Notes under the pieces: generated by a model
Databases searched by the model: none
Seen by the model: the letters and a program-made list of their open reading frames with translations, nothing else
Told to the model about the DNA's origin: nothing
Source: Candidatus Micrarchaeota archaeon
GTDB lineage: Archaea; Micrarchaeota; Micrarchaeia; Micrarchaeales; CABMGC01
Direction: 5' to 3'
NCBI GenBank assembly: GCA_021810455.1
Contig: JAJZIU010000001.1
Span: 4,613 to 68,612 of the forward strand
Length of the DNA stretch: 64,000 nucleotides
Shown here: positions 3,388 to 46,060 of the stretch, piece after piece
How positions within the stretch are numbered: position 1 is the stretch's first letter
Layout: the number at the start of each line of letters is the position of its first letter
Translations under genes and position numbers: made by a program

Positions 3388-3405
3388 TTTATCACATTTC
3401 TATAT

Positions 3406-6912: not shown

Positions 6913-6916
6913 ATTA

Positions 6917-7288: not shown

Positions 7289-7319
7289 TTAGATAGTATG
7301 AGTATAGCATATTATTATA

Positions 7320-7553
7320 TTATGCTCTTCCGCCAAGTATCCTCGCTACGCTCTCTCCGGCAGAAGTTTTGAGCGAGTACGCACCACCGGCAAATGTTGC
7401 GTTGCAATATTTGCAGTGCCATATTCCAGTGCTAACCCTTCTTACAGAATTCTTTCCGCAAAGATCACACTTGTACTTTGTGTTCTTCTGCGCTATTATT
7501 GTACGTTCCCTTTTGCGAAGATTAACTCCATACCTTATACTCTTGTTTGCCAA
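7320..7553 (-). CDS. rpl37ae: Ribosomal protein eL43 (L37Ae)
   Basis: 77 aa. RYGVNLRKR...YKCDLCGK..VRRVSTGIWHCKYCNATFAGGAY is the eL43 zinc-ribbon signature. Confidence 0.92.
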   Translation of the reverse strand: MANKSIRYGVNLRKRERTIIAQKNTKYKCDLCGKNSVRRVSTGIWHCKYCNATFAGGAYSLKTSAGESVARILGGRA

Positions 7554-9672: not shown

Positions 9673-9676
9673 AATG

Positions 9677-10360: not shown

Positions 10361-10385
10361 AAAAACCAACAGATGAGGGGCGCTG

Positions 10386-11081
10386 TCATAAGAATTTAAG
10401 CAGCTCCTCCTGCTCCATAAGATGGTAGTCTTCACCATCTCTTATGTAACCTATATCCAAATTTTGTACGCTGAGCTTTTCTTCACCTATTTTTCTCAGA
10501 ATCTTTACACCAAGCGTTATTGCTTCTTCTGTATCAAGATTATCTTTGTACTCTTTAACAAGAATGTCTGTTGCGGTTTTCTTTCCAACGCCTATGGCAT
10601 CAGCTTTGTATCCTAGGAATGAAGCACCTGGTTCTATCTCGAACAGTTTGGGGCCGTTATCCATTCCTCCAAGAAGGAGAGATACTGCATACGGCCTGAG
10701 ACCACCATACTGTGTAGCTTGCATCATGTAAGAAGAAATTTCGCTTGACAGTGACTCTATCGACTTCGTATCTTCATAAACAAGTTTGTGATTTTGAGCT
10801 CTTGATCTAGCTACATCAACTATGTGCAACCCATCGGCAACCATACCGCTATAGGTAGCAGCTATGTGAGCATCAACCCTAAACACCTTTTGTATTGTTG
10901 AAGGTATTGCGAGGGGTTCTGTGACGTTTTTGTGCGCTATAAACACTACACTGTCTCTTGTTATCATTCCTATTGAAGTAGCACCTTTTCTCACTGCTTC
11001 CTTTGCGTATTCTACCTGAAAGAGCCTTCCGTCAGGGTTAAACATTACGCCCCTATCATATGCTTGAACATTGGGATACAT
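10386..11081 (-). CDS. psmA: Proteasome subunit alpha
   Basis: 231 aa. YDRGVMFNPDGRLFQVEYAKEAVRKGATSIGM is the alpha-subunit N-terminal signature. Confidence 0.92.
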   Translation of the reverse strand: MYPNVQAYDRGVMFNPDGRLFQVEYAKEAVRKGATSIGMITRDSVVFIAHKNVTEPLAIPSTIQKVFRVDAHIAATYSGMVADGLHIVDVARSRAQNHKLVYEDTKSIESLSSEISSYMMQATQYGGLRPYAVSLLLGGMDNGPKLFEIEPGASFLGYKADAIGVGKKTATDILVKEYKDNLDTEEAITLGVKILRKIGEEKLSVQNLDIGYIRDGEDYHLMEQEELLKFL

Positions 11082-11293: not shown

Positions 11294-12082
11294 ATGGAAT
11301 CAACATCCACTAATAGTGCACCTAACTTTGTACATCCGTCAATACTAAAAGTCGTAGAACAAAAGAAAAGAATACGTGAAAAGCTGTCAGGAATAAAGCA
11401 TAAGGTAGGCGTATTCAGCGCAAAGGGAGGTGTTGGCAAGACAACAACTTCAGTTAACATAGCTTTTACCCTTAGCAGTATGGGTTATAAAGTTGGCTTG
11501 CTTGATGCTGACATAGATTGCCCAAACGTATGCATGTTCCTTGGAATAAATGATGTCATCGATATGGAATATCCGTTAGTGCCCATTGAAAAGGACGGTG
11601 TTAAGGTACTATCAACAGCGATGTATGTGGATGATAATAAAAAACCAATAATATGGAGAGGGCCTATGATAGGAAAGATGGTAAGCGAATTTCTCGAAAA
11701 CTCGGAGTGGGGGGAATTAGACTATTTAATAATAGACATGCCACCAAACACAAGCGATGCGCCATTGTCGATAATACAACTTTTGGATCTTGATGGATTT
11801 ATCTTGGTTACAACCCCACAGCACATATCGGCAGTTAACACAATAAGATCCGGAATGATGGCAAGAAGGCTTGGGGTTGCAGTTCTCGGAGTTATTGAGA
11901 ATATGTCTGGAGATAAGCCCGTTGGAGGAGAAGAAGTTTCCAAAAGCTTAGGATGTGAGCTGTTAGGTACTATTAAGACCAGGACGGAGATCGGAGAGTT
12001 TAGTGACAGAGGAGTGGTTCCGGTTTTAGAAGATCATAGTATAAGAGATAATTATGCAAATATTGTGAAGAGGTTATTCTGA
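11294..12082 (+). CDS. Mrp/NBP35-family P-loop ATPase (Fe-S cluster carrier / ParA-like)
   Basis: 262 aa. Deviant Walker A VFSAKGGVGKTTTSVN, then DADIDCPN and LIIDMPP. The stop overlaps the cdc6 ATG by 1 nt (TGATG). Confidence 0.85.
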   Translation: MESTSTNSAPNFVHPSILKVVEQKKRIREKLSGIKHKVGVFSAKGGVGKTTTSVNIAFTLSSMGYKVGLLDADIDCPNVCMFLGINDVIDMEYPLVPIEKDGVKVLSTAMYVDDNKKPIIWRGPMIGKMVSEFLENSEWGELDYLIIDMPPNTSDAPLSIIQLLDLDGFILVTTPQHISAVNTIRSGMMARRLGVAVLGVIENMSGDKPVGGEEVSKSLGCELLGTIKTRTEIGEFSDRGVVPVLEDHSIRDNYANIVKRLF

Positions 12083-13293
12083 TGGAAGGGCATTTTGACG
12101 AGCTATTCAAGGAATCTCACATTTTTGCAAATAGAGAAGTTTTATCTCCGCATTACATACCACAGCGCCTGCTTTTTAGAGATAAACAAATATCAGAGAT
12201 TGAAAAAGCGCTGACACCCTCACTAAGAGGAGAGCGTGGCAGGAACGTTTTCGTATACGGGAAGACAGGTACTGGAAAAACATCCTGTGTTAGATGGGTT
12301 ATAGAACGAGTTAAGGAACTGCCGATAATAAAGGCAAGAATCTCTTATGTGAACTGCAGAATCTACAACTCGAGATACAGAGTTCTCAATAAAATAGCAA
12401 GCGACCACATGCCGATTTATGCAAAACGTGGATATGGAGTCATTGACATTTATGAAAAGATGGTGAGCTGGATAGAGGAAGATGGTAAGATACTGATAGT
12501 CGTGCTTGACGAAGTGGACATAGTAAGGGATCTTGACGATCTTATTTACACTCTGACAAGAGCAAATAGTGATATTAAATCAGGAGGAATAACAATTATC
12601 GGAGTTTCTAATAAGGTTAATTTTAAGGAGATTCTTGATCCGAGAAGTTTGTCCACGCTTTATGAGAATGAATTGGTTTTTCCTCCTTACAATTCACCAG
12701 AACTTGCATCGATATTGAAAGAGAGAATAGGAGAAGGATTCAAGAAGGGAGTTATAGACGACGCCGCAGCAAATCTTGCTGCGGCTATAGCTGCCAAGGA
12801 AAGTGGCGATGCAAGACTTGCTTTGAAGATAATATCCAAGGCTGGAGAGATAGTAGAGGAAGGAAACAGAAATCACGTGAGTATTAATGATGTTGAAGAA
12901 GCCGCAAAGTATGCTGAAGAAGAAGTTGCTTATGAATTGATAAACACTCTTCCTGAAAACCAGAAGCTGGTGGTTTATGCTCTCGCAATAATGTCTTTGC
13001 AAGGCAGCAAATACAAGAGACTTGACGAGGGAAGCGATAGTTACATGTTGAGTGGAGAGATATATAACAGATATTGTTCTGTTGCAGAATCCCTACATAG
13101 AGAAGTGAAAAGTTCAAGACTGTACAGAAAGTTCATATCGGATTTGGAAATGCAGGGCATAGTTACTTCTTATGAATCTGGAAAGGGGATAAGAGGCCAT
13201 ACAAAACTGATAAAACTGATTTATAGACCAGACAAAGTAAAAGATATTATAGAGAAGGGGCTTGCGAAAGAAAGTGAAGCTGAGACAACTTAA
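12082..13293 (+). CDS. cdc6: Orc1/Cdc6 replication initiator
   Basis: 403 aa. LSPHYIPQRLLFRDKQI, Walker A YGKTGTGKTS, Walker B VVLDEVD, sensor GDARLALKI, and a C-terminal winged helix. Confidence 0.92.
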   Translation: MEGHFDELFKESHIFANREVLSPHYIPQRLLFRDKQISEIEKALTPSLRGERGRNVFVYGKTGTGKTSCVRWVIERVKELPIIKARISYVNCRIYNSRYRVLNKIASDHMPIYAKRGYGVIDIYEKMVSWIEEDGKILIVVLDEVDIVRDLDDLIYTLTRANSDIKSGGITIIGVSNKVNFKEILDPRSLSTLYENELVFPPYNSPELASILKERIGEGFKKGVIDDAAANLAAAIAAKESGDARLALKIISKAGEIVEEGNRNHVSINDVEEAAKYAEEEVAYELINTLPENQKLVVYALAIMSLQGSKYKRLDEGSDSYMLSGEIYNRYCSVAESLHREVKSSRLYRKFISDLEMQGIVTSYESGKGIRGHTKLIKLIYRPDKVKDIIEKGLAKESEAETT

Positions 13294-27854: not shown

Positions 27855-30584
27855 ATGGATCCTTATTCCTTATTTATAGCCAGATTCGGTAGATTTACAG
27901 AGGTACAAGAGATGGCTTTTGAAGCCATAAAAAAAGGTAGCAACTGTGTAATAACAGCACCTACAGGAAGTGGCAAAACAGACGCTGCATTGTTACCAAT
28001 GCTTGATCTTATATCGAAATCCGCATATGATAATAACATTTTAGTGCTTTATATAACACCCTTGAAAGCACTTAACAGAGATTTAATAAAGAGAGTGACC
28101 TGGCTGTGTAATGAATTGGGAGTAAGCGTAGGGGTCAGACATGGTGATACGAGTGTTGTTGAGAGAAAACACCAGGCAGAACACCCTCCACAATTGTTAA
28201 TAACCACACCAGAGAGTCTTCAAAATTTATTTTTATCCCCAAGACTCAGAAACTCTTTAAAGAAACTCAAAGGAGTTATAGTAGATGAGGTTCATGAGTT
28301 ATATTACAACAAAAGGGGCGCACAGCTTTCAGTTGCTTTGTCAAGAGTTACAAAAATTTCGGGCGAATTCCAACGTGTTTGCATAAGTGCAACGGTTGGT
28401 GATGTTGAGACGATTTCTGAGTTTATGTTTGGAAAAAGAGATTACACTGTTGTGAGGTCTTCAAAGGGTAAAAAATTTGATATTAATATAGAGATGCCGG
28501 AAAAACCACTTAGGAAGCACGACGAGATAATAGAGGCTTTTGGATTAGATGACCCATCTCTTGCAAGAATGGAGAGGATATCTGAAATTGTAAAAGATTC
28601 TGAAGCGACTTTGGTTTTTACAAACACAAGACAAGCCGCAGAATCTCTTGGCAGTAAGCTGATTTACTTTGATAAGGTGGAGCATTTTGGTCCAGTGGGC
28701 ATACACCATAGCTCTATTGAAAAAACAGAAAGGATAGAGACTGAAGAGAAACTAAAGGAGGGGAAATTGAAGTGTATTGTTTCTACAAGTTCATTGGAGC
28801 TCGGAATAGATATAGGAATGATAAATCAAGTTATACAATACGGATCCCCGAGGCAGGCAACGCGTTTATTACAGAGGATAGGTAGAGGGGGACATAGAGA
28901 AGGTGCCACGTCAATAGGCACAATTTTAGTTTCTGGTGTTATGGATGCTTTAGAATCTATTGCGATAGTAGCTTCTGCAAGAGATGCGCGTTTAGAAAGA
29001 CAGGATATGGAAAGGTGTGCAATTGATGTTATGTTGAACCAGATATGTTCCATTGCATTGGAATACAGAGAGATAAGTATTGATGAAATGTACGCAGTGT
29101 TTAAAGGTGCTTCTGCATTTTCCGATTTGCAGCTGGAGCTTTTCGAATCTGTAGTAAAATTTGCAGAAGAAGAAAAACTCATTACCACAAGAGATAAGAT
29201 AAGGATAAGTAGTAGGGCAAGAGATTATTTTTACAATAATATAAGTGTGATACCTGATTCGCCGAAATTTTACGTGAAGGATATATTAAGAAATAAGGTC
29301 GTGTCGCTTCTTGATGAAAAGTTTGTTTTTAGCTACATAGATGAGGGCTCTGTTTTCATAACGCGTGGAATGCCGTGGAAAGTGGTGAGTATTGAAGAGG
29401 ACACTGTTTTTGTTGAACCGAGTTTAGACCTAAGTGCGGCCATACCGGATTGGGAAGGAGAGGACATACCAGTGTCTTACGAAATTGCAAATAGGGTTGC
29501 TAGACTTTTCGAAGAAGTACCAGCAGATGCAAGGCTTGATAAAAACTCTGAAAGAGAAATAAGTTTGTTTATTAAAAAACAATTAGAATCATTTATACCT
29601 TCAACAAATACGATAGCTGTCGAGATTCTTGATGAATATGTAATAATCCATTCCTTATTAGGAAAGTTGGCAAACGAGTTTTTAGGCAGAGCGATAATGA
29701 GAATTATCGGTTCTAGAGACATATTCATGAGAGCTACACCGTATGCGATTATGATTGATTACGGATCTTCAATAAAAGCTCCAGATATTAAAAAGGCGTT
29801 TGATGTCTTACAGGTTTCAAAACTTGATGCTTCAGTTGTTGAGGATACAGAGCTGTTCAGATACAAATTTGTACAGATATCTAAATTGCTAGGCATTATT
29901 GATAAAAAAGCCAAAGTAACAAAAAACGTTGCAAACAAGTTGGTAAGATTTTATAGAGATTCGATAGTATACAGGGAGACTCTCAGAGATTTGGAAAAGA
30001 ACAACATAGATGTAGAAAGAGTTAGGGGGCTTTTTAACGAAATAAGAGCAGGTAGAGTAAAGATAATATATAGGAATCAAATATCCGCGCTTTCTGAGGA
30101 ACTGATTAAAAGTACTATGAAATACAGGGAACTTTTGTCTTCCGCCCTACCTGGCAATGAAGTCGTTGAGCAATTCGAGATTAAGTTTAGGGGAAGAAAT
30201 GTTTTGTTATTATGCACCTATTGTGGATTTGAATTTAATTATGAAATAAAGATAGGGAAGGATGGATTAATAAGATGCCCAAGATGTGGAAGTTCAATGT
30301 TGGTTAGATCGAAGGATGTCGCAAGAGATGTGATTAAAAGAAGTTTGTTAAAATCAAAATTGACTGTAGATGATAGAAAAATCAAGATAGAACTTTTGAA
30401 AGAAGCAGGAATGGTATCAGAATATGGAGATAGAGCTCTGATAACATTATTAACTTATGGGGTTGGAGTCAACACTGCTGCAAGAGTTCTCAGGCTAGTT
30501 AGAACAGATTATTCGAGATTTATAAAAGATATAATAGAAGCACAGAAAACTTTTGTAAAAAACAGCAAGTTTTGGAAAAAATAG
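27855..30584 (+). CDS. lhr: Lhr-type DEAD/DEAH-box superfamily 2 helicase (paralog 1, C-terminal zinc ribbon)
   Basis: 909 aa. APTGSGKT (I), VDEVHE (II), TSSLELGIDIG, QRIGRGGHR (VI), and the long Lhr-core-type C-terminal extension. CTYCGFEF...RCPRCGS zinc ribbon near the C-terminus. Confidence 0.86.
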   Translation: MDPYSLFIARFGRFTEVQEMAFEAIKKGSNCVITAPTGSGKTDAALLPMLDLISKSAYDNNILVLYITPLKALNRDLIKRVTWLCNELGVSVGVRHGDTSVVERKHQAEHPPQLLITTPESLQNLFLSPRLRNSLKKLKGVIVDEVHELYYNKRGAQLSVALSRVTKISGEFQRVCISATVGDVETISEFMFGKRDYTVVRSSKGKKFDINIEMPEKPLRKHDEIIEAFGLDDPSLARMERISEIVKDSEATLVFTNTRQAAESLGSKLIYFDKVEHFGPVGIHHSSIEKTERIETEEKLKEGKLKCIVSTSSLELGIDIGMINQVIQYGSPRQATRLLQRIGRGGHREGATSIGTILVSGVMDALESIAIVASARDARLERQDMERCAIDVMLNQICSIALEYREISIDEMYAVFKGASAFSDLQLELFESVVKFAEEEKLITTRDKIRISSRARDYFYNNISVIPDSPKFYVKDILRNKVVSLLDEKFVFSYIDEGSVFITRGMPWKVVSIEEDTVFVEPSLDLSAAIPDWEGEDIPVSYEIANRVARLFEEVPADARLDKNSEREISLFIKKQLESFIPSTNTIAVEILDEYVIIHSLLGKLANEFLGRAIMRIIGSRDIFMRATPYAIMIDYGSSIKAPDIKKAFDVLQVSKLDASVVEDTELFRYKFVQISKLLGIIDKKAKVTKNVANKLVRFYRDSIVYRETLRDLEKNNIDVERVRGLFNEIRAGRVKIIYRNQISALSEELIKSTMKYRELLSSALPGNEVVEQFEIKFRGRNVLLLCTYCGFEFNYEIKIGKDGLIRCPRCGSSMLVRSKDVARDVIKRSLLKSKLTVDDRKIKIELLKEAGMVSEYGDRALITLLTYGVGVNTAARVLRLVRTDYSRFIKDIIEAQKTFVKNSKFWKK

Positions 30585-30593
30585 TCACAGCAT

Positions 30594-32996
30594 TCAATAG
30601 ATGAGTTTTGCGTCTGCTATTTTTGATCCGGAATCAAGTTTCATTAGTCTTACTCCGCTTGTTGCCCTGCCCGTCTCCCTTATGGAACTTACAGGTATGG
30701 TTATACTTATTCCCCTGTTGTTTATAAGCAATAGATGCGGTTCGTCGGACAAAGAAAGTGCCTTAGAAACGTTTCCTGTTTTCTGGTTTGTCCTAAGATT
30801 TGCTATGCCCTTTCCGCCTCTTTTTTGAGTTCTATATTTGTTTATAGGAGTTACCTTACCATAACCATTTTCAGTTACTGTCATTAGTTTGGTGCTGTCA
30901 TCTACAGCGAGTATGTTTCTAGGTACATCGTCCTTTAACCTTATGCCACGAACTCCCATTGCAGTCCTTCCGATAAATCTTAAATCATTATCATTAAACT
31001 TTATTGCTTTGCCTTTAGCTGTAGCGATAACTAAATATTTTTTATCTCTGTAGGAGACAACGTCGACTATTTCGTCTCCTTGAGCCAACGTTATTGCACG
31101 TACACCTGAAGAACGAGGTTTTGAGAATAGATCTGCGCGTACTTTTTTAACTAATCCTTTGCGAGTTAAGAACACAAGATTTGAATTTTCAAATCCTTTT
31201 ATATCCAACAAACCTATTATCTTTTCGTCAGTTATGTTTAGCAGGTTCACTATCGCTTTTCCTTCGGAATATCTGCTACTTTCAGGTACGTTGTATGCTT
31301 TTAGCCAGTAAACCCTCCCTTTGTTTGAAATAGAAAGGACGTAGTCTTTGTTATTACAGGCTATTACTTGGTTTACATAATCTCCGTCTTTGAGGTTTAT
31401 TGATATTACACCTTTTCCGCCGCGGGCTTGTTCTTTGTAGATTGTTGTTGCCATTCTCTTTACGTATCCTTCCTTGGTTAATATCAAAGTGACTGGCTCG
31501 TCACTTATCATATCTTCATCTTTTATCATGAATGCGCTTTCATCCTCTGATTTAATTATTTCTGTTTTTCGTGGTTTGCTATAAAGTTTTTTAATTTCTT
31601 CAGTTTCAGAGCGTATTATGCCTTTTATCTTTTCAGGATCAGAAATTACACCGGAGTAGTATTCTATTTTCCTTCCAAGTTCGTCACTTTCTATTTTTAA
31701 TGTGTCGCTTTCTAAATGAGTGAGTCTGGAAAGTTTCATATCGAGTATAGCGTCTGCTTGTTTTATTGTAAGGCTATGTGTGGTTATTAGCTTTTCGCGT
31801 GCGTCTTTGACTTCCTTACTGGCTTTTATATCACGTATTATATCGTCTATTTTTTCGATTGCTATCAGTAATCCTTGCACGATATGTTGTCTTTCGGTTG
31901 CCATGTTTAGTTCGTACTTACTTCTTCGGAGTATTACGTCTTTTCTATGCTCAACAAATACTGAAATCATTTGCAAAATATTAAGATTTCTAAGGCTTTT
32001 TCCAACAACTGCAAGGTTTATTATAGGCAGTGTGTTCTCTAACTGAGTATGTTTGTATAGTTGATTCAATATCTGGTCTGGGTCAAAATTTTCTTTAAGA
32101 TCTATGACTATGCGTATGCCGCCCTTATCGCTTTCGTCTCGGAGATCTTTTATTCCATTTATTCTTTTGTCTTTTACAAGAATTGCGATGGCTTGCACTA
32201 TTGATGCCTTGTTGGTGTTGTATGGTACTTCAGTTATCACTATTCTATTTTCGGAGCTTGTATCTGCTTTTGCTCTGACGCGAATCTGACCCCTGCCGTG
32301 TCTATAGCCATCATATGCGCTTTGTGACATTATTGCTATACCGCCTGTGGGAAAATCAGGTCCTTTAACTATTTCAAGAAGATCGTCTGCAGTAGTAACA
32401 GCGGATTCCAGGTATTTTATTATTGCATCACACACTTCAGACAGGTTGTGTGGGGGCATACTTGTCGCTACTCCAACAGCTATACCCGAAGATCCATTTA
32501 CAAGAAGGTTTGGTATTTTTGAAGGGAGTATAAGAGGCTCTTCCTCAGTGTTATCAAAATTTGGTATAAAATCAGCGGTGCCTTTATCAAGATCTTCCAA
32601 CATCTCCTCTGCAATTTTAGTAAGTCTGACTTCAGTGTATCTCTGTGCAGCAGGAGGATCTCCGTCTATTGAACCAAAATTCCCCTGACCTTCCACTAAA
32701 GTGTGATGCATAGAGAATCCTTGAGCCATACGAACCATTGCATCGTAAACGGCAGTATCTCCGTGTGGATGGTATTTTCCTATTGTTTCTCCAACTATTC
32801 TCGCGCTTTTTTTTGTCGGCTGATTGTGTAAATTTTTAAGATTATACATGGCGTAAAGTATCCTTCTTTGTACTGGTTTTAGGCCATCGCGAGCATCAGG
32901 TATAGCCCTTCCGATTATTACGCTCATTGCGTAATCCACGTAGCTAGCCTGAAGTTCTTCGTCAATCGGAGTTATTATCTGCTTTTCCATTTGCAA
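30594..32996 (-). CDS. gyrA: DNA gyrase subunit A
   Basis: 800 aa. [29 protein letters not shown], active-site region [15 protein letters not shown], and C-terminal beta-pinwheel repeats. Confidence 0.96.
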
Positions 32997-32999
32997 ACC

Positions 33000-34907
33000 T
33001 CATATGTCTAATGATTTTACTTCTTCCGCATGTTCTTGCAAAAATTTTCTTCTTTTTTGTACGTCCATGCCCATTAGAATCGTAAATAATTCGTCGGTGT
33101 GCATAGCATCGGTTATTGATACTTTTTTAAGTATCCTATTTTTAGGATCCATTGTAGTTTCCCATAGTTGCTCGGGATTCATTTCTCCTAAACCTTTGTA
33201 TCGTTGTACTTCTGCTTTTCCACCAAGTTCTTTCAGTTTCGCATCTAGTTCCTGATCGCTGTAACAGTAGGAAACATCTTTTCCTTTAGAAACTTTGTAT
33301 AGGGGGGGTTGTGCCATGTACACATAGCCGTCTTCTATTATTTTGCGCATGTACCTGTAAATAAAAGTTAGTAGAAGTGTGCGTATATGACTTCCGTCAA
33401 CATCCGCATCAGTCATGAGTATTATTTTTTTATATCGTATATTTTCTGAGTTGAACGATTCATTTATCCCAGTTCCAAAGGCCGTTATTAGTGCCTTGAT
33501 TTCAGCATTATCGAAGATTTTCTCTACGTTTGCTTTTTCTACGTTTAATATCTTGCCTCTTAATGGAAGGATTGCTTGTATGTTTTTGTCTCTTCCATCT
33601 TTTCCAGAGCCACCTGCGCTCTGTCCTTCTACTATGAAGAGCTCCGTTTCATCAGGATTATTTGATATACAATCTGCCAATTTTCCAGGAAGTACAGTGC
33701 CTTCGAATAAACTCTTTTTTCTTGCAAGCTCTCTAGCCTTGCGAGAACTTTCACGCGCGTTTGCAGCTGTTTCTGCCTTTTCTATTATTGCTTTGGCATC
33801 TGAAGGGTGCTCCTCGAGATAGCGAGATATATGAGAATATATCTCGGTTTCTACAATCGTCTTTATTTGCGCGTTACCGAGTTTGCCTTTTGTCTGTCCT
33901 TCAAATTCGGGGTTTTGCATCAATACACTAAGTACTGCGGTAAGTCCTTCCCTGACATCTTCGCCGGTTATTTTTGTTTCAGCTTTTCCGGATTTGTTTT
34001 TTGATATGTAATTTAGTACTGCTCGAGTCAGGCCAGTGTGGAACCCAACCACGTGGGTTCCGCCTTCCACAGTTCGTATGTTATTTACAAAGGATTCAAT
34101 TTTCTCGTCGTATGTACTATTATATTGTAGGGCGTACTCTATGCTTACCTGCCCTTCTTGTATTTTGGAACGTATTATATTTGTCAATGTAGTTTTTCCG
34201 TTGTTCATATAGCGTATAAAGTCGGTTATGCCTTCTTTGGATGAGTATGTTTCGTCTTCTGGAGACTCAAATCTCTCATCTTTTAGAGTTATGTTTATCC
34301 CAGGGTTTAAAAAACTCGTATATCTAAGCCTGTCTTTAAGAGTTGTTGAATCGAAAGTAGTAGTTTGGAATATCTCTTTATCAGGTTTGAATTCCGTAGT
34401 GGTTCCGGTTTCTTTAGTGTCACCAAGTTGTTGCAGAGGAGATGTTGGAACTCCTTTGCTAAAACCCATTCTGTAAATATGTCCGTCCTTTTTTACAGTT
34501 ACGTTTGTGTATTCAGATAATGCATTAACCACAGTAAGCCCAACGCCGTGCAGTCCTCCGGACACCTTGTAAGCATCGCTAGAGAATTTACCGCCTTTGT
34601 GCAGGGTGGTCATTATTACTTCGAGTGCACTTTTATTGAATTTTGGCATGATGTCTACAGGTATGCCACGACCGTCATCAATCACTTCGGCAACATTGAC
34701 ATCATTATCCATGAATAATCGTATTTTAATGTTTTTACAGTATCCGGACATTGCTTCGTCTACTGCATTGTCTATCACTTCGTAGAGAAGGTGAAGCACT
34801 CCGCTAGGGCCAGTAGAACCTATATACATTGCTGGTCTTTTACGTATTCCTTGCGGACCTTCGAGAACAATAATTTTAGATGCGTTGTAGTCGTCACTTT
34901 CTGCCAT
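33000..34907 (-). CDS. gyrB: DNA gyrase subunit B
   Basis: LEGPQGIRKRPAMYIGST, GLHGVG, EGQSAGGS, PLRGKILNV and DADVDGSHI. ATG at 34907 (MAESDDY...) preferred over the track start at 34964. Confidence 0.96.
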   Translation of the reverse strand: MAESDDYNASKIIVLEGPQGIRKRPAMYIGSTGPSGVLHLLYEVIDNAVDEAMSGYCKNIKIRLFMDNDVNVAEVIDDGRGIPVDIMPKFNKSALEVIMTTLHKGGKFSSDAYKVSGGLHGVGLTVVNALSEYTNVTVKKDGHIYRMGFSKGVPTSPLQQLGDTKETGTTTEFKPDKEIFQTTTFDSTTLKDRLRYTSFLNPGINITLKDERFESPEDETYSSKEGITDFIRYMNNGKTTLTNIIRSKIQEGQVSIEYALQYNSTYDEKIESFVNNIRTVEGGTHVVGFHTGLTRAVLNYISKNKSGKAETKITGEDVREGLTAVLSVLMQNPEFEGQTKGKLGNAQIKTIVETEIYSHISRYLEEHPSDAKAIIEKAETAANARESSRKARELARKKSLFEGTVLPGKLADCISNNPDETELFIVEGQSAGGSGKDGRDKNIQAILPLRGKILNVEKANVEKIFDNAEIKALITAFGTGINESFNSENIRYKKIILMTDADVDGSHIRTLLLTFIYRYMRKIIEDGYVYMAQPPLYKVSKGKDVSYCYSDQELDAKLKELGGKAEVQRYKGLGEMNPEQLWETTMDPKNRILKKVSITDAMHTDELFTILMGMDVQKRRKFLQEHAEEVKSLDI

Positions 34908-34975
34908 GAAAAACAACGCAAATATATCTGATTTTAAGACTATAAACCTTCTCTGCATATGCATATTGTGAGGTT

Positions 34976-36331
34976 ATGGCAAGGGAAAATGTGAAAAAAT
35001 CAAAATCTAAAAAGGTTATTGTGATAGGGGCTGCGGGTAGGGATTTTCATAACTTTAATGTGCTGTTTAGAAACAATAAAGAATACGATGTTGTTGCATT
35101 CACAGCAAATCAGATCCCATACATCACGAATAGAGATTATCCTGAAATCCTTGCTGGGAAAAGTTATAAGAAAGGTATACACATATACGACGAATCAGAA
35201 CTTTCGGGACTCATTAGAAAGTTTAATGTAGACATATCTGTGATGTCGTATAGTGATCTTCCTTTTAACCAGGTAATGCATATTGCGAGTTTGGTTAATG
35301 CTGCTGGTTCAGATTTTTGGCTTGTTGCGCCAAACAAGACCATGATAAAATCGAGTAAGCCAGTTATTGCAGTTTGTGCAGTAAGAACAGGATGCGGCAA
35401 AAGTCAGGTGTCTAGATATATATCAAAACTTCTGAGGGAGAAAGGCTTCAGGGTTGTCATCATAAGACATCCAATGCCCTATGGCGTTCTGAAAAAACAG
35501 GCAGTTCAGAAGTTTTCAGAACTTAAAGACCTAGATAAATACAATACAACTATTGAAGAAAGAGAAGATTACGAACCTCATTTGAAGAACGGGTTTGTGG
35601 TTTATGCAGGAGTAGATTACGGTAAAATTCTTAAAAAAGCAGAAAAGGAAGCAGACATTATAATATGGGACGGCGGAAACAATGACGCACCTTTTATTAA
35701 ACCAGAATTAATGATAACGGTCGTAGATCCTTTGCGCGCAGGCAACGAACTTAATTATTATCCCGGAGAGACTGTAGCGATGATGGCAGATGTTCTTTTA
35801 GTAAATAAGGTAAATTCTGCTAACAAAGCCGATGTTGAACGAGTTGTATCCAATCTGAAAGGAATAAACAACGAAGGCAGAATATTTTATGCAGACTCTG
35901 TGGTTACTGTTGATAATGGCTCTGAAATAAAGGGGAAAAGAGTGTGTGTAGTTGAAGATGGTCCAACAATAACGCACGGGGGTATGCTTTTCGGCGCAGG
36001 AAGTGTTGCGGTTAAAAAATACGGTGCCAAAAGTGTTGTTGAGGCTAAAAAATATGCAGTAGGAGAAATAAAGAAGACATTTGAAAGGTATGAAAAGCTC
36101 AGGTATGAATTGCCAGCAGTAGGTTATAGCAATAGGGAGATTTCTGATTTGCAGAGGACAATAAATAAGATGCCTTGTGATGTTGTCGTTTCAGCTACAC
36201 CAACAGATTTGAAAAGGTTAATTAATGTGAACAAACCAGTATTACAAGTTAATTATGAACTACAACCTATAGGGAGAGGTTTTGACAAAGAAATAGAGAG
36301 ATTTTTAAGATCTTTGAACAGGGGTCCGTAA
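34976..36331 (+). CDS. COG2403-type predicted GTPase / cyclic 2,3-diphosphoglycerate synthetase-like protein
   Basis: 451 aa. KVIVIGAAGRDFHNFN at the N-terminus, a P-loop-like CAVRTGCGKSQVS, and the size fit my memory of this family. Function not established from sequence alone. The last 10 nt overlap tRNA-Lys. Confidence 0.5.
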   Translation: MARENVKKSKSKKVIVIGAAGRDFHNFNVLFRNNKEYDVVAFTANQIPYITNRDYPEILAGKSYKKGIHIYDESELSGLIRKFNVDISVMSYSDLPFNQVMHIASLVNAAGSDFWLVAPNKTMIKSSKPVIAVCAVRTGCGKSQVSRYISKLLREKGFRVVIIRHPMPYGVLKKQAVQKFSELKDLDKYNTTIEEREDYEPHLKNGFVVYAGVDYGKILKKAEKEADIIIWDGGNNDAPFIKPELMITVVDPLRAGNELNYYPGETVAMMADVLLVNKVNSANKADVERVVSNLKGINNEGRIFYADSVVTVDNGSEIKGKRVCVVEDGPTITHGGMLFGAGSVAVKKYGAKSVVEAKKYAVGEIKKTFERYEKLRYELPAVGYSNREISDLQRTINKMPCDVVVSATPTDLKRLINVNKPVLQVNYELQPIGRGFDKEIERFLRSLNRGP

Positions 36332-36396
36332 CTCAGATTGGTCAGAGTGGCTGGCTCTTAACCAGCAGGTCGTGGGTTCAAATCCCACCGGGCCCG
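36322..36396 (+). tRNA. tRNA-Lys(CUU)
   Basis: Hand fold: GGGTCCG-TA-ACTC-AGATTGGTCA-GAGT-G-GCTGG-CTCTTAA-CCAGC-AGGTC-GTGGG-TTCAAAT-CCCAC-CGGGCCC-G, 75 nt with all stems paired. Followed by the T-rich TTTATGTTTTTATT. The 5' end overlaps the upstream CDS stop codon. Confidence 0.9.
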
Positions 36397-37182: not shown

Positions 37183-37257
37183 AGCGAGGTAGGGTAGCAC
37201 GGAGTGCCCGCCGGGCTCATAACCCGGAGAACGGTGGTTCAAATCCACCCCTCGCTA
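37183..37257 (+). tRNA. Initiator tRNA-Met (CAU)
   Basis: AGCGAGG-TA-GGGT...GCCC-G-CCGGG-CTCATAA-CCCGG-...-GGTGG-TTCAAAT-CCACC-CCTCGCT-A. The A1:U72 pair and three G:C pairs closing the anticodon stem are initiator hallmarks in archaea. Starts on the nucleotide after the tfe stop codon. Confidence 0.88.
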
Positions 37258-37368
37258 ACCCTTTATTTCCACTATTTTTTAAAGTTATTTTTCAAAAATA
37301 TGAATTAATTTTAATTTAATATAGTACTATATATAATATATAACACACGAATAGTGGAAATGAACCCT
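37257..37368. repeat. 12-bp perfect inverted repeat flanking ~73 bp of near-pure A/T, bracketed by AACCCT direct repeats
   Basis: IR-L ATTTCCACTATT 37265-37276; IR-R AATAGTGGAAAT 37350-37361 (exact reverse complement). The interior has about 9 G/C in 73 nt by hand count. AACCCT occurs at 37257-37262 and 37363-37368. Confidence 0.6.
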
Positions 37369-37379
37369 CTGTTGGTCTT

Positions 37380-37823
37380 ATGGAAGATGATATTAGTATT
37401 ATATTTTCAAAATTTTCCGAAGAGAAAAAAACAGGAGAACTATTGCCTCTTCCGATAGATTTTTATTCAAGATACGGTAATAATACAAACGACGAATCTC
37501 GTGAAAACAAGAACAAAACCATATCCGCACTAAAAGCAAAAAGAATGCAAAAAATACTCGTGTACCTTGCTTATGGAAGGCCGCTGCCACAGCAGGTACC
37601 TGAAGAGGAAAAACACATTTATCAGGAAATCAAAAAACTAATATCCCAAAAAACAAAAGAAGACACAAAAAAACTAAAAATCCTGATAAAGATCCCAGAA
37701 ATAATAACCCCAGAAGGACAGAAGATAGGGCCTTATGAAAAAAACCAAATAATAGAAACAAGTAATAATAGCAATGTGGAATATATACTAAAGAATAAAA
37801 TCGGAGAAATTATAGAACAGTGA
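37380..37823 (+). CDS. GINS subunit-like protein (Gins51/Gins15-like, compact)
   Basis: 147 aa. N-terminal ELLPLPIDFYSRY...KRMQKILVYLA...VPEEEKHIYQEI resembles the GINS A-domain. C-terminal LKILIKIPEIITPEGQKIGPYEKNQIIETSN..VEYILKNKIGEII resembles the B-domain (v.vl.diP.f.g.dg..yGP...gd.........a..l...g.ae.I). Called by eye only. Confidence 0.5.
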   Translation: MEDDISIIFSKFSEEKKTGELLPLPIDFYSRYGNNTNDESRENKNKTISALKAKRMQKILVYLAYGRPLPQQVPEEEKHIYQEIKKLISQKTKEDTKKLKILIKIPEIITPEGQKIGPYEKNQIIETSNNSNVEYILKNKIGEIIEQ

Positions 37824-40516: not shown

Positions 40517-43500
40517 TCATCCGTATTTTTTGCGGATTGCGTAAATTGCCAATACTGAGGCAAGCGCAATCGCTAAAATAACTACTCCTAAGTTTCCATA
40601 TCCTAACTCTGCTAGTCCTATGTCCACCCCTTCTTGGGTATAATTAGGGAACCATTGGTAATTGAGTACATTAAATGTAGTGTACGATTTCGAGGTTGGA
40701 TCTGCAGATGAAGACAACCACGCTTGACTGGCTTGTAATGGTTGTGGGGAAGGAGACCCGTAAAACCTTGCAATTATCGTGGCACTCCCTATCCCACAAG
40801 CGTATATGCTGTTGCTAAAGAAACCCATCGAATTTGTTGTTGTTGTACCTACTAGCCCAAGCTGTGATGTGCACGTCCCTGTACCGTTGCTAAATATCGG
40901 TTGGCAGAATCTCTGTTGGCCATTTTGTCCCGGAGAACATGTTTGTGGAATATTTTTGTTTCCATCATTACCGTATATATTACAATTAGTATCTACTGGT
41001 ACAAGCAACGAATTTGGGGGAGGATTGCATTCTCCAAGCGAATTGTAGGCTGTTGAGTATGTTATGGTATTTGCGTTATTTGTCTGCCCTAAATAAACAG
41101 GATTTGCCAAAACGCAATTGCTAGGTATCTGTGCTCCGCTTCCAACATCTCCAAAAGCGCAAAGCATTGCATTTTTTTCATTAGATGGGTTTTGAAGTGC
41201 ATTGTATCCTATATAATTGATATTTGTATCATAATACAGATATATTAGCCCGTTTCTGAGAGGATAAAATTTATTGTTTATTGGACTGTAATATCCAACA
41301 GTACCATTTATGAAAATTTTTGTATCGTTTGCGTTATTCGAATTGACTACCGGGGTTACCTGTAGTGATATGCTTGTTGTATTCGCTATATCCGTATCAA
41401 GCGGGGCGTATATTGCGTTGCCGAATCTATCTCTTAATACAAAAACAAGCCTCTGATAACCTAGGACATTGGCAACACTTCCTGCGCCGTATTTAAAACT
41501 TGAACTGTTTATATTAAAACTCATAGGATTGTTGTAAACAATCTGCTGGTACCAATCAAAAAGCTTCACGAATGTAGGCAATGCTGAATTAATGTTGAAT
41601 ACGTTTTGATAAGATATGCCTGTCCTGGTATTAGTCGCTATCTTTTGATTTCCAACAAGAGCATACGCGGGTCCATTATAAGGGCCGTAAGGCAAAGAAG
41701 ATATTGTTTGATAACTCAAAGGCCCTAATTGGGTATTAAAGACAGTATTTATTATGTTGTACTCTAAAAGATCGGTTGCATTAAGCACCACTTGGTTATT
41801 CGTTGTTGGTCCTGTGGTAGCATTTACGTAAATGCTACCAAACTGCTTGTCTCCCTGAATATTCATTATCATCTGTGGATTTATGTAAGAACCTAGGTCA
41901 GACATGTTCGGAACATAATAATTACTTCCTTGGGGCCCGCTAAACTGAAGATAAATTCCACCCCCTTCAACATTTGCAGAAAGTGAGTTGGATCTTGCAT
42001 TTATTATTCCATAAGAAAAAATCTCGCTTGAACTTGAACTGGAATGACTTGATGGTGGGTTACTACACGATGCACCCTGCTGTATTGGTACCCCCGTGCC
42101 TGAAAATTGCCAATTCTGACTGGTTGAGTATGTGTATTTGTACGGTACCAACACATAACCTATAATATTGCTAGTCATGCTTACCGGGGAGGTAACCACC
42201 GAAGTTCCTGGAGGTATTGAAACAGACGTTCCCGTTATGCCACCAAGTTCCGAATTTGTAGGAGGTGTAAACCCTGAAAAACAACTCGAGTATGAACTCG
42301 AATTCAAAGAACCAGATTGCAAACTATTTATACACGTTTGATTGTAACTCTGCGATTGCTGTGACTGTGGACTTCCTCCTCCTCCAGTGAACGCAGATCC
42401 GAATAAATTCTGATATGATAATATTCTACCCGATCCCGTACTCTCCAAATACTTGAAAGGATCCGCAACCGTGTATATCGGTGCTGCAAGCTGATCTAAA
42501 TAAGAACTAGGTTTGCACGAGTTAGAATTCACTCCGGTATCTACAAAACATGAGAATAAACCTATTCCATCCAACAATCTTGTGTAATTTTCAATGCTTA
42601 CTTTTGCAAACAGAAGTTCTCCGTAGTCATTGGCAACAGTCTGGCAGTTAAGAAAACAGCCATTGTTGATGTGCTGCTGCGATGGGAATAAGAAGTCAGC
42701 AGTATAGTTATAATTTACTGAAAAACTGGACTGAGCTTCTCGTGGCACGCCACAACCTATGCCTATTCCAAAAGGCAGATTGAAGCAAGCTATGGCTTGA
42801 ACATTCGGTCCTAGTGACAAATAGCTCGATTTCAAGTTGTTTGGATTATAATCGCACGATTCTGAAGAACAAAAAGAAACATAGTTGCTATTATGTCCAC
42901 TTTCTAACACGTTTGCAGATAATACCCACCCATAAGGTGGATATGTATCATTAGGATAGAAACCAGGAGTGGCTGTTGTATAATACGTTGAAGTTGGTTG
43001 CCCCCCTGCACCAACACACTTATACTGGTATGTAGGAGCCTCTCCAGTTCTTGCACTAGTAACTCCCAAAGCACTGCCTGGACATGTTGATGAAATCTGT
43101 GGAGAACAGCCAACCGCAGCATTGCAATTAGGAACTACTCCACATTTAGATACTTGTGGTGTATTACATGTTGCCGCTCGCTGTGAATACATGTCGTTGA
43201 ACTTCGTAGGGTTAAATGGCACATTGGTTCCAGAAGAATTTATGACTCTAAGTAATAACGTATTGAAAAAGACACCTTGTCCTGAAATCCCGGGCACTGG
43301 CCCCGGAGTGCCAACGTACCCTCCCCAATTGTCTAAAACATACAAATATCCATTAACATCCTGAATACCTATTGGGTGGTGAAATGCTTGCGTATCAAAT
43401 GCAAGACCTTGATACTTCTGCGTTTGTACTGCTGATAGTGCAGACTTAATCCAACCTGGTGTAATACCATATAATCCGCCATTCTCCAAATACGTCGCAA

Positions 43501-46060
43501 TATTAAGATTCGCCAAGGTTGTTGATACACTCTCACCAGGAATAATTCCTGGAGACGCGGTGGTGTTCGAAACAGGCAAATTAGCATTATAATCAAAAGT
43601 AAGATCGATACTGTCTTCTAAGGCAAGCGAATTCCCGCTATAAACCTCTATGCTGCCATAAGATGGGCTTGCTAAATAAATCTGTTGTCCGCTTGGTGAA
43701 ACTGTAATCTCCTGGAATTGTTTATCTATTGTATTTGTAGTCACTGCTGGTGAACCTGTCAAGATGCCAGTTATCTCAACCAATGAGGGATGTGTTGATT
43801 GTATAGGGCCTCTGTTAGTTTGGATTGATGTCGTGGTACTACCAACAATGAAAACATCCCCATTATTATCTACTGATATATTGAATGGTGTAAACCCTTG
43901 CAATTGCGAAAAACCATTCAAGTCAGATTGGGAAATCAAATAACTATAACCGTTTTCACTATTTGCCACAAGCCCCCAATAGTTACTCCATGCGGTATTC
44001 CATTGCGAAGTGCAGCTGCTTTCAGATGCAGGATTGCAACTCACTTGTTGGATTGCTGATGTGGGTGTCTGTGGATTTGTAAAAGACCCTTTAGGTATGG
44101 CTCTTAAAACATTAAGTTGATATGCTCCAGATGTCCCAGTAAGTACGAATATGTAGTCATTGGGCATAACTGCCACGGATAGTGGACTCGGTAATGCGGA
44201 AGGCGGTCCAGATATTATACCACAGTTTGGACTACCTTCGGTACACCAAGGTAGACCGTTCTGCCCTTGGAGACAATTATTGTACTGTTTGCCATTGTAC
44301 GTATAAAGTCCTATTCCACCATCCATTGCTCCAGAGTAGGTTGTGGGCATGTATTGACAGTATGCCCCTACAAACTCGTTTACTGCTGGATCATCAAATG
44401 TCTGCCAATAACAAAACTTCTTACCCTGGACAACACCTGGGCAATTCTGATAGTTACTTCCAAAATATTGGATATAATCTTGTGCCCACTGCATTTCGCA
44501 TAACGGATTAAATTCCCAATTTGAAGCTCCTGTGGAGCAACTAGAAGGATTATAATTTGGTACTACTGGGTTTTGGTCATTCTGCAATAAGCCACAAGGA
44601 CATTTTCCACTTCCACCATATGTTGCTCCAGGATAGAAACCACTTTCAGCATTAGCTATAGAAACTATTATTTCCAATTCCGTTCCTGTAAAACCGGCTT
44701 GTTGCGCACATGCTACAACTTGTGAAAACTGCATCTTATAATGTGGAGAATTTTGGAAGTTTTGGTCAGGACAAGTTGCGGTTTGACTTGAACTAGTCTG
44801 TGCCTGTCCTGTTTGACTTGTGGTTGTTGTAACGATTCCTAGGCGACCTCCAACTCCTCTTACTGGTTGTGTTACTGCGCTTCCTAAGTTATTAAGAATA
44901 GTGCCTATTTGTGCAAGTGTATCTTCCTTTCCATTAAATGCACAAAGAAGACTGTCGAGACTTAAAACTACCTGGCCACTACTCTGGCAAGTTAAAAGAC
45001 TACCGCTATAATTTACAAACAAAATACCTGGTATGTCTACACTGAATGGATCAACTATTGATGGAGTATAATAATTCCAAGGGCTGAATACGTCATACTG
45101 CAAGTTACTTATCTGTGGAACCATGGTGGATAAAGACCCTGGTACGCCTATACTATATCCATAAGTAAGATATGGTAACGCTGGGGTATCAAACTGTGAC
45201 ATTATCGGATTCCCATTGTTATCCACTCCTGTAACTACGTTGAAAGGTATGTAACTATTTGCTATACTTCTCAATGTGGTCGTTTCACCGTAATTATACG
45301 TATACTGGCAACCATTCTCATCGTATGTTAGATCCTGCTCATTTATCTGTTTCGACTGTGGCAACCGTGCATTAGCTCCTTCAAAATTTGCAAAAGTTGC
45401 ACTCCAAGTCCATATATCATTCTGCGCGAAAGAAGGAACGCCGTTGAATATGTACGTGTTCGTTGCAAATCCGTTAGACAATTCCCCATCTACCATCGGT
45501 GTATAAGCTATATTCTTGACTTCTGCATTACCCGGATTGCCAACTTGCAGTGGGCCTACTGATGCCTGAGCGAGAGAAGATTGAGACCAGGTTACTGTGG
45601 TCACGAGTGTCAACTGACTCACAAGTGAACCCTGTGTGTTAAGACACGGCGCACCCGCAACGAACGGCACAATCCCGCTATAAAACAACACGTTAGATGT
45701 TGGGTCTGATGGCACATTTTCACATGTAAGAAACTTCAAGGCCTCCTGTTGATTTTGATTAGCAACTTGTAATACTGGGGATTCCTTGTAAATCTGTCCT
45801 TCTGGAGTTGAACTTTCCGAAGATGAAAAAACACCCGAATAGCTTGTAGTAAACGGAACCGTTATGGTGCTCGAAGCACTTCCGGAAGAAGGTTGTTGAA
45901 ATACAACATTATTAAATCCTGAATTTGATGGCGTTTCAAAAGATGCGTTGTAAAAATGCGATGTTAATAAAATCCCAAGTGCAAAAAATACAAGAGAAAG
46001 TACTAGTAAACATGAAAATAGAAAAGGCCATGCCTGGTCTTTTTTATCCTTAGCAACCAT
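40517..46060 (-). CDS. Giant (1,847 aa) Cys-rich surface protein with N- and C-terminal hydrophobic anchors, an SLT/lysozyme-like segment and NHL-like repeats
   Basis: Uninterrupted 5.5-kb ORF. N-terminal WPFLFSCLLVLSLVFFALGILL and C-terminal VVILAIALASVLAIYAIRKKYG. IANAESGF...CGLLQ lies at residues ~468-493. Blades include PIGIQDVNGYLYVLDNWGG. The composition is S/T/N/G-rich with few charged residues, many Cys and many N-x-S/T sequons. Confidence 0.85.
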   Translation of the reverse strand: MVAKDKKDQAWPFLFSCLLVLSLVFFALGILLTSHFYNASFETPSNSGFNNVVFQQPSSGSASSTITVPFTTSYSGVFSSSESSTPEGQIYKESPVLQVANQNQQEALKFLTCENVPSDPTSNVLFYSGIVPFVAGAPCLNTQGSLVSQLTLVTTVTWSQSSLAQASVGPLQVGNPGNAEVKNIAYTPMVDGELSNGFATNTYIFNGVPSFAQNDIWTWSATFANFEGANARLPQSKQINEQDLTYDENGCQYTYNYGETTTLRSIANSYIPFNVVTGVDNNGNPIMSQFDTPALPYLTYGYSIGVPGSLSTMVPQISNLQYDVFSPWNYYTPSIVDPFSVDIPGILFVNYSGSLLTCQSSGQVVLSLDSLLCAFNGKEDTLAQIGTILNNLGSAVTQPVRGVGGRLGIVTTTTSQTGQAQTSSSQTATCPDQNFQNSPHYKMQFSQVVACAQQAGFTGTELEIIVSIANAESGFYPGATYGGSGKCPCGLLQNDQNPVVPNYNPSSCSTGASNWEFNPLCEMQWAQDYIQYFGSNYQNCPGVVQGKKFCYWQTFDDPAVNEFVGAYCQYMPTTYSGAMDGGIGLYTYNGKQYNNCLQGQNGLPWCTEGSPNCGIISGPPSALPSPLSVAVMPNDYIFVLTGTSGAYQLNVLRAIPKGSFTNPQTPTSAIQQVSCNPASESSCTSQWNTAWSNYWGLVANSENGYSYLISQSDLNGFSQLQGFTPFNISVDNNGDVFIVGSTTTSIQTNRGPIQSTHPSLVEITGILTGSPAVTTNTIDKQFQEITVSPSGQQIYLASPSYGSIEVYSGNSLALEDSIDLTFDYNANLPVSNTTASPGIIPGESVSTTLANLNIATYLENGGLYGITPGWIKSALSAVQTQKYQGLAFDTQAFHHPIGIQDVNGYLYVLDNWGGYVGTPGPVPGISGQGVFFNTLLLRVINSSGTNVPFNPTKFNDMYSQRAATCNTPQVSKCGVVPNCNAAVGCSPQISSTCPGSALGVTSARTGEAPTYQYKCVGAGGQPTSTYYTTATPGFYPNDTYPPYGWVLSANVLESGHNSNYVSFCSSESCDYNPNNLKSSYLSLGPNVQAIACFNLPFGIGIGCGVPREAQSSFSVNYNYTADFLFPSQQHINNGCFLNCQTVANDYGELLFAKVSIENYTRLLDGIGLFSCFVDTGVNSNSCKPSSYLDQLAAPIYTVADPFKYLESTGSGRILSYQNLFGSAFTGGGGSPQSQQSQSYNQTCINSLQSGSLNSSSYSSCFSGFTPPTNSELGGITGTSVSIPPGTSVVTSPVSMTSNIIGYVLVPYKYTYSTSQNWQFSGTGVPIQQGASCSNPPSSHSSSSSSEIFSYGIINARSNSLSANVEGGGIYLQFSGPQGSNYYVPNMSDLGSYINPQMIMNIQGDKQFGSIYVNATTGPTTNNQVVLNATDLLEYNIINTVFNTQLGPLSYQTISSLPYGPYNGPAYALVGNQKIATNTRTGISYQNVFNINSALPTFVKLFDWYQQIVYNNPMSFNINSSSFKYGAGSVANVLGYQRLVFVLRDRFGNAIYAPLDTDIANTTSISLQVTPVVNSNNANDTKIFINGTVGYYSPINNKFYPLRNGLIYLYYDTNINYIGYNALQNPSNEKNAMLCAFGDVGSGAQIPSNCVLANPVYLGQTNNANTITYSTAYNSLGECNPPPNSLLVPVDTNCNIYGNDGNKNIPQTCSPGQNGQQRFCQPIFSNGTGTCTSQLGLVGTTTTNSMGFFSNSIYACGIGSATIIARFYGSPSPQPLQASQAWLSSSADPTSKSYTTFNVLNYQWFPNYTQEGVDIGLAELGYGNLGVVILAIALASVLAIYAIRKKYG

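Follow-up and report, generated by a model that had tools for sequence, protein, structure and literature searches.

The 130-bp core of Sulfolobus oriC1, which depends on Orc1-1, is organized as ORB3-DUE-ORB2, i.e., two origin recognition boxes (ORBs) placed around a duplex unwinding element (DUE); both ORBs are required, replication initiates at one of the ORB/DUE junctions, and each ORB of oriC1 is said to bind one initiator monomer with a defined polarity (PMC12141716). The minimal oriC1 of H. hispanica no longer functions when one of its two ORBs is deleted or one of its two G-strings is mutated (PMC3936714). The minimal structure ORB(-)/DUE/ORB(+) also includes the origin of H. butylicus, which has no adjacent initiator gene, and a published origin-prediction pipeline needs either the adjacency of an initiator gene or at least three ORBs (bioRxiv 10.64898/2026.08.15.744077). 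ORB1 and ORB2 of Pyrococcus are bound by Cdc6/Orc1 both in vivo and in vitro; for P. furiosus this binding was observed in gel-shift assays (PMC1904270). Here we have analyzed a stretch of 64,000 nucleotides (hereafter, the window) of a Candidatus Micrarchaeota archaeon (assembly GCA_021810455.1, contig JAJZIU010000001.1, positions 4,613 to 68,612) that contains, between an initiator tRNA-Met gene and a GINS-family gene, a 111-bp module (37258-37368) made of two inverted boxes and an A/T-rich spacer. This module is probably the core of the chromosomal replication origin, a minimal oriC of the Orc1/Cdc6 type conserved across the phylum.

The Micrarchaeota are DPANN archaea of tiny size that depend on a host and have been seen almost exclusively in metagenomes, and no description of a Micrarchaeota replication origin was found in the literature searched. 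The module was originally noticed as a 12-bp perfect inverted repeat, ATTTCCACTATT at 37265-37276 and its reverse complement at 37350-37361, with AACCCT at 37257-37262 and 37363-37368; all these positions are exact, and the 73 nt between the arms (88% A+T) contain nine G/C, as had been counted by hand. Lengthened to 15 nt, the repeat is 93% complementary, and the window has no other perfect 12-mer inverted repeat with a loop of 20-120 nt. Under a first-order Markov model, 0.89 such pairs are expected in 64 kb and 51% of the simulations contain one or more, and thus the significance of the inverted repeat from the window alone is weak. When up to two mismatches are allowed, the 12-mer is found 17 times in the window against 12 expected, i.e., it is not over-represented, and a third exact copy at 10053 lies within an open reading frame (ORF). 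The repeat is nevertheless a real feature, because 72 orthologous loci of other Micrarchaeota have both arms in the same orientation and at a conserved spacing.

For this comparison, 79 loci encoding GINS orthologues were collected from species-representative genomes. A tRNA-Met(CAT) gene is located at most 300 nt upstream of the GINS match in 66 of them, the same linkage as in the window, and both arms were found in the spacer of every locus with enough upstream sequence. Oriented alike, the arms define a 21-nt box with the consensus ACCCCACAgTTCCACTAtTCG and about 24.6 bits of information. Using a position weight matrix (PWM) built without the window's own arms, and counting a locus when both boxes score at least 12 bits, we have identified 72 loci of relatives, each with one box on the plus strand and one on the minus strand directly upstream of GINS. 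In the window, the same PWM gives 24.2 and 25.7 bits to the two arms and 13.4 bits to the next best match, the best match in shuffled windows averaging about 11 bits, and no other match above about 13 bits was found in 467 kb of flanks of the related loci. The box pair is also present in eight loci without tRNA-Met, none of them used to train the PWM, and therefore the module is tied to GINS rather than to the tRNA.

The distance between the starts of the two cores is 82-101 bp (mode 84), the A/T-rich spacer between the boxes measures 71-90 bp in the 72 other Micrarchaeota loci, and the whole module spans 109-128 bp, mostly 111-114 bp, in 73 genomes. In the relatives, 2-100 nt separate the tRNA from the left box, and the right box ends 6-114 nt ahead of the GINS match. 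The orientation of the boxes is common to the window and the 72 relatives, with a C-string on the left, a G-string on the right, and the cores facing the A/T-rich center, which is the inverted arrangement ORB(-)/DUE/ORB(+). The outer segment of the box appears as a C-run or as a G-run across genomes, independently in each arm. Among 55 arm pairs (loci L005-L083), the arms of the same genome agree at position -1 of the box, which separates the C-run from the core, in 29 cases against 13.7 expected (z = 4.8), although this position differs freely among genomes, and no between-arm agreement was observed at the other variable positions. Both boxes may thus track the lineage-specific preference of one putative binding protein.

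The original prediction noted that TTCCAC/GTGGAA in the arms resembles the core of archaeal ORBs, and this likeness is borne out by two published sets of sequences. The first one comprises P. furiosus ORB1-3, a mini-ORB, and the mutant and control oligonucleotides of the Cdc6/Orc1 gel shifts (PMC1904270). The second one consists of ten ORBs predicted in Methanomassiliicoccales together with the pan-archaeal consensus CTTCCAGTGGAAACGAAAGGGGT (PMC4153887). A gap-tolerant model of two blocks (ACCCC, gap, CAnTTCCACT), trained only on Micrarchaeota arms, assigns 20.0 bits to P. furiosus ORB1/2, 20.3 to the pan-archaeal consensus, 15.0-23.8 to nine of the ten Methanomassiliicoccales ORBs, and 23.8 to their consensus; the exception is the predicted ORB1 of M. 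luminyensis, with only 0.1 bits. The 99.9th percentile of the null distribution is 11.5-14.6 bits, and the mutated ORB and the control oligonucleotide score -1.1 and -6.7, respectively. The reverse complement of the box, CGAATAGTGGAAcTGTGGGGT, has AGTGGAA, TG, and GGGGT in common with published ORBs, and 12 contiguous bases of the right arm, TTCATTTCCACT, are identical to P. furiosus ORB1/ORB2. The boxes are therefore repeated elements with the core and G-string of an ORB, carrying one half of its dyad.

A related module with three boxes (24.2, 14.6, and 26.5 bits) was found at positions 3039-3465 of another locus, L119 (L105 is the same locus reversed). Its spacer is G-poor and contains several CCAC mini-repeats on the same strand. 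It lies between a 100-aa ORF of no family and a gene similar to the PF18894 'phage metallopeptidase', with no GINS, TFE, or tRNA-Met gene nearby, and it could serve as an origin in another lineage or in a mobile element.

The DNA between the boxes has the properties of an unwinding element. No 70-mer of the window is richer in A/T or less stable than the one in the region 37273-37345 (91.8% A+T), with a dG of -64.7 against a window mean of -89.7 (sd 4.7), i.e., about 5 sd below. In the relatives, the spacers average 77% A+T (range 62-92%) against 56% for the loci, and they keep 66-75% A+T even in genomes that are only 43-50% A+T. The spacer is conserved by composition and not by sequence, with one exception: of 64 oriented modules, 49 have a single box that is followed by CG and then, starting 8-12 nt after the box, by an alternating TA tract, and for this reason the two arms are strongly anti-correlated at positions +10 and +11. 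In 44 genomes this polar end adjoins the left box; in 20, the window among them, it adjoins the right one. Since it can lie either way round relative to GINS, it is independent of the gene direction, and we count this for an origin. About 11 changes of orientation can be placed on a rough GINS tree, which is the outcome expected from recombination between inverted boxes.

The strand composition also changes at this place. The raw GC skew of the window follows the gene strand and is uninformative alone, so the skews at the third codon position of 56 ORFs were regressed on the gene strand and the side of the breakpoint, with 500 permutations of the gene order. The GC skew (GC3) and the keto skew (keto3) so corrected switch sign independently of the strand, with the best breakpoints at 36.4-38.1 kb and F values of about 50-55 that none of the 500 permutations reached; for both skews the effect of the side exceeds that of the strand (-0.13 versus 0.04 for GC3). 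The best breakpoint of the AT skew (AT3), 37281, lies inside the module but is weaker (p about 0.1). The side effect on keto3 was also estimated at the module in 20-kb loci of three relatives, where it agrees with the window in sign and size (t -5.3 to -6.7). This composition switch marks an origin or a terminus. Within the otherwise positive left arm, the corrected GC3 skew falls to about zero at 7-11 kb (window 6900-11000) with no change of sign.

The presumed initiator gene, orc1/cdc6, which had been placed some 25 kb away, is indeed located 24 kb from the module. Its product is 68-77% identical to its 119 best other matches, and all of those with a source name are Micrarchaeota Cdc6/Orc1 proteins. 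GINS, at 41-53% identity, is much less conserved than Orc1, whose conservation parallels that of the box. In three other genomes orc1 lies 22, 28, and 38 kb from the module, and among the four genomes it is found on either side of it and in differing gene contexts. Scans of 3 kb around orc1 detected no box, either in the window or in three further genomes. An initiator gene kept near the module fits an origin, and we see no rationale for it at a terminus. In the window, orc1/cdc6 begins at the stop codon of a gene for a P-loop ATPase of the Mrp/ParA type (PF10609; both genes, 11294-13293), and the pair looks like an operon. The PF10609-orc1 pair recurs in three more Micrarchaeota (L144, L146, and L147), and other genomes have the order PadR-orc1-Rpp14.

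Taken together, the ORB match, the layout of a minimal origin, and the least stable DNA of the window support the origin-like reading that had been proposed for the inverted boxes and the unwinding element, and the skew switch, which would fit a terminus too, falls at the same site. By analogy with model archaea, one Orc1/Cdc6 monomer would bind each 21-bp box, with its winged-helix domain on the TTCCACTATT core and its AAA+ domain on the G:C-rich outer segment, and the two opposed initiators would load MCM onto the 70-bp spacer of about 90% A+T between them. Melting would begin at the alternating TA tract, fixed at 8-12 bp from one box. In the genome of the window this tract could double as the TATA box of GINS, with the right box between the TATA and the start site, and if so, occupancy by the initiator could gate the expression of a helicase co-factor. 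In a more speculative and less likely version, the polar center of such an origin would be flipped by recombination between the inverted boxes, which would switch the gating of the GINS promoter by Orc1.

Several observations weigh against an origin. The boxes carry TATT in place of TGGAA, i.e., they are without the second half of the canonical dyad, and their gap between core and G-string is shorter than in published ORBs; for these two reasons an ungapped full-length PWM scores most published ORBs poorly, one Methanomassiliicoccus ORB excepted. The boxes number just two, and a cluster of mini-ORBs is absent. Nor does the module adjoin orc1; a complete chromosome of 853 kb has 146 kb between the two (17% of the circle, not opposite). 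Concerning the composition, the skew tests in relatives share syntenic genes and are not fully independent, and rightwards of the module the plus strand is rich in C and A, which is the polarity of a bacterial or thermococcal terminus. Moreover, the minus strand carries 74% of the coding DNA on the right side of the window, and these genes would be head-on to forks departing from the module.

The alternative that survives best, although we regard it as unlikely, is that the module is the transcriptional control region of the GINS-L44e-eIF2alpha-PAC2 row, the boxes being operators for Orc1/Cdc6 or another winged-helix regulator and the TA tract a TATA box. In archaea, some Orc1 binding sites are known to overlap promoters, the module is always directly upstream of GINS, and the TA tract of the window lies 36 nt from the GINS ATG with the right box between them. 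By this spacing, it could be the TATA box of the GINS gene. The proposal that the A/T block supplies the TATA-like sequence of GINS is hence plausible for this genome, but it does not hold as the general purpose of the module, because in about two-thirds of the genomes the TA tract is at the far (left) end, pointing away from GINS. In addition, a pair of operators separated by about 85 bp, with nothing but the composition of the intervening spacer conserved, would be an unusual design, a promoter would leave the strand-independent composition switch unexplained, and the related three-box module described above sits in an unrelated gene context.

The polarity of the skews brings in the terminus, in two forms. 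In the first one, which we consider very unlikely, the module lies at the terminus and its ORB-type boxes, bound by the initiator, act as a site-specific place of fork convergence or fork trap; if true, it would be the first defined archaeal replication terminus, re-using the chemistry of origin recognition. In the second one, to which we assign an even smaller probability, the module is a terminus where converging forks meet inverted boxes that serve as a protein-bound fork barrier or as a resolution site. A terminus would agree with the polarity of the GC3 and keto3 switch, with most right-hand genes of the window lying on the minus strand, co-directional with forks coming from the right, and with the usual polarity of a Diapherotrite DPANN archaeon whose origin lies beside cdc6 (PMC5905446), the latter being one more point against an origin here. 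However, haloarchaea have this same inverted polarity at proven origins (PMC1868953), and since the polarity is lineage-dependent in archaea, it cannot decide between an origin and a terminus. The boxes match ORBs in the exact orientation of an origin around an unwinding element, and orc1 lies 22-38 kb off in the four genomes and not opposite the module in the complete chromosome. To our knowledge, no archaeal site-specific terminus of this kind has been described. A dif/Xer site was rejected by its architecture: Xer/dif sites have spacers of about 6 bp, compared with the 73 nt found here.

That the inverted repeat works as an RNA or DNA hairpin, i.e., as a tRNA trailer, a terminator, or a structured 5' leader of the GINS mRNA, is highly improbable. 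Its arms are complementary and position -1 co-varies within genomes, as mentioned above. However, among 70 distinct arm pairs, 78.5% of the cells pair compared with 76.7% after shuffling, as expected from two independently conserved copies of one motif, and almost every variable position has 16-40 unpaired cells. The C-run and G-run variants of the outer segments occur in all four combinations, and the distance of 2-100 nt between the left box and the tRNA also speaks against a hairpin. Compensatory base pairing as in a structured RNA was not supported either, the covariation test being negative and the Rfam scan returning no family at E<=1 besides tRNA.

Finally, the other reading originally offered, a miniature inverted-repeat transposable element (MITE) inserted beside a tRNA with AACCCT as a 6-bp target-site duplication, can practically be discarded: its terminal inverted repeats, short A/T-rich body, flanking 6-bp direct repeats, and tRNA-adjacent position recall such elements, but the module is single-copy in the window (12-mer with mismatches and PWM) and in the 467 kb of related loci, it fills the spacer upstream of GINS in all 72 loci of relatives in which the two boxes were detected, with no empty site among about 73 orthologous loci diverged to 41-53% GINS identity, and its arms are conserved phylum-wide at one orthologous site. 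AACCCT is part of the conserved G:C-rich outer segment of the box, which here reads by chance ACCCT on the plus strand at both ends and is not a direct repeat in most relatives. No dispersed family appeared in the metagenome or viral scans: of the 51 matches of a metagenome-wide scan for the arm pair, about 30 arose by chance in coding DNA and the others, except for one unrelated locus, were orthologous loci of the order TFE-tRNA-module-GINS, and the five matches in IMG/VR were all chance matches in coding DNA as well; the chance matches of both scans have spacers that are not A/T-rich.

If the module is an origin, its 111 bp at a fixed and readily recognized place, in the order initiator tRNA-module-GINS, would be a landmark for orienting and checking assembled genomes, would allow in situ growth rates to be estimated from read depth, and would provide a starting point for shuttle vectors in the few existing co-cultures. 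Such an origin would abut the gene of the helicase-activating GINS, overlapping the GINS promoter in some lineages, and would thus physically link the binding of the initiator to the supply of the replisome. Micrarchaeota and haloarchaea would then have the inverted skew polarity in common. A two-box module 24 kb from orc1 would be missed by current prediction because the pipeline cited above wants the adjacency of the initiator or at least three ORBs.

The features of the locus are listed in Table 1. The local gene order is gyrB and gyrA (minus strand), a gene for a 451-aa protein, tRNA-Lys, TFE, initiator tRNA-Met, the inverted repeat, GINS, L44e, eIF2alpha, and PAC2. The adjoining tRNA had been called an initiator tRNA-Met, and it has in fact A1:U72 and the three G:C pairs in the anticodon stem of this class. 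The next gene, predicted as GINS-like, belongs to the GINS family, since its homologues in metagenome-assembled genomes of Micrarchaeota (41-53% identity) have PF05916 or PF27418 domains and are designated GINS by JGI. Several metagenome assemblies hold identical copies of the region, and in the complete Micrarchaeota chromosome OY969902.1 the module lies near 566.9 kb.

Table 1. Coordinates of the candidate origin, its parts, and related genes in the window.
Feature	Position	Strand	Remarks
Candidate oriC core (box, A/T-rich spacer, inverted box), 111 bp	37258..37368	.	Two convergent PWM matches
Left ORB-like box ACCCTTTATTTCCACTATTTT; ORB(-) under the published naming	37258..37278	+	C-string segment ACCC and TTCCACTATT core; 24.2 bits
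Right ORB-like box, minus-strand sequence AGGGTTCATTTCCACTATTCG	37348..37368	-	'Strong' arm, then CG and TA tract; 25.7 bits
A/T-rich spacer, presumed DUE	37279..37347	.	A+T content and stability scan
Alternating TA tract TATATATAATATATAA, 6 nt inside right box	37328..37343	.	Polar element of the spacer
Initiator tRNA-Met(CAT) gene	37183..37257	+	Abuts left box; neighbor, outside the element
GINS-family gene, conserved right-hand neighbor	37380..37823	+	First in the GINS-L44e-eIF2alpha-PAC2 row
orc1/cdc6, presumed initiator reading the boxes	12082..13293	+	Pfam Cdc6_lid, Cdc6_C, and AAA domains

Some other observations on the neighborhood can be added. Two independent Logan assemblies of the same species (L003:1-173 and L004:1-192; window 37209-37228) break within the initiator tRNA gene, to the left of the module, which could be due to a second near-identical copy of the tRNA or to strain variation upstream. 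A conserved block of genes for DNA transactions flanks the module (window 27855-34964; L140-L142), with an Lhr-type helicase and the A and B subunits of a bacterial-type gyrase on the left and RadA on the right; RadA carries an intein in L140 and L142. A 1847-aa ORF on the minus strand (window 40517-46060), with no Pfam match at E<=0.01, comes directly past the end of the synteny with the relatives, which suggests a rearrangement to the right of the DUF92 gene. The tRNA-Lys(CTT) gene (36322-36396) overlaps the final 10 nt of the listed 451-aa ORF (34976-36331), and thus either the genome is very compact here or the end of the ORF is mis-set.

The type of element represented by the module is already known; what is new is the lineage, the fixed location away from orc1, the two-box form with half dyads, the flipping polar spacer, and the skew polarity that an origin would imply. 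Like the Sulfolobus oriC1 core, the module has two inverted ORBs around an A/T-rich unwinding element, has a similar size, and is asymmetric, with the TA tract beside one box. Sulfolobus oriC1 differs in that it adjoins orc1-1 and has a third ORB, a full dyad, and in the middle of the DUE a ucm motif bound by UBP, whereas the Micrarchaeota module has two boxes, a half dyad, and no recognizable ucm, and lies 22-146 kb from orc1.

With the minimal oriC1 of H. hispanica the module has an identical strand layout (C-string on the left, G-string on the right, A/T-rich center), and the inverted GC-skew polarity is that of haloarchaea. Haloarchaeal ORBs differ in their extended G-strings, in an inner G-rich enhancer repeat, and in the adjacent cdc6 gene, and unlike them, the outer segment in Micrarchaeota can be a C-run or a G-run on either arm. 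With ORB1/ORB2 of the Pyrococcus oriC, which also form an inverted repeat, the boxes have CCCCC...TTTCATTTCCACT in common, although the Pyrococcus ORBs are 34 bp long with the full TTCCACTGGAA dyad and 7 nt from the C-string to the core (1 nt in Micrarchaeota), and they are surrounded by many mini-ORBs beside cdc6 and dp1. In the Methanomassiliicoccales, ORBs likewise come as inverted pairs, with the form GTGGAAATG(n)AGGGGT, and in some copies the first half of the dyad is degenerate, ATTACAGTGGAAATGAAGGGGT (PMC4153887); those pairs are predictions and lie beside orc1/cdc6.1. As for the location, the module resembles oriC of H. butylicus, an ORB(-)/DUE/ORB(+) origin that also lies away from the initiator gene.

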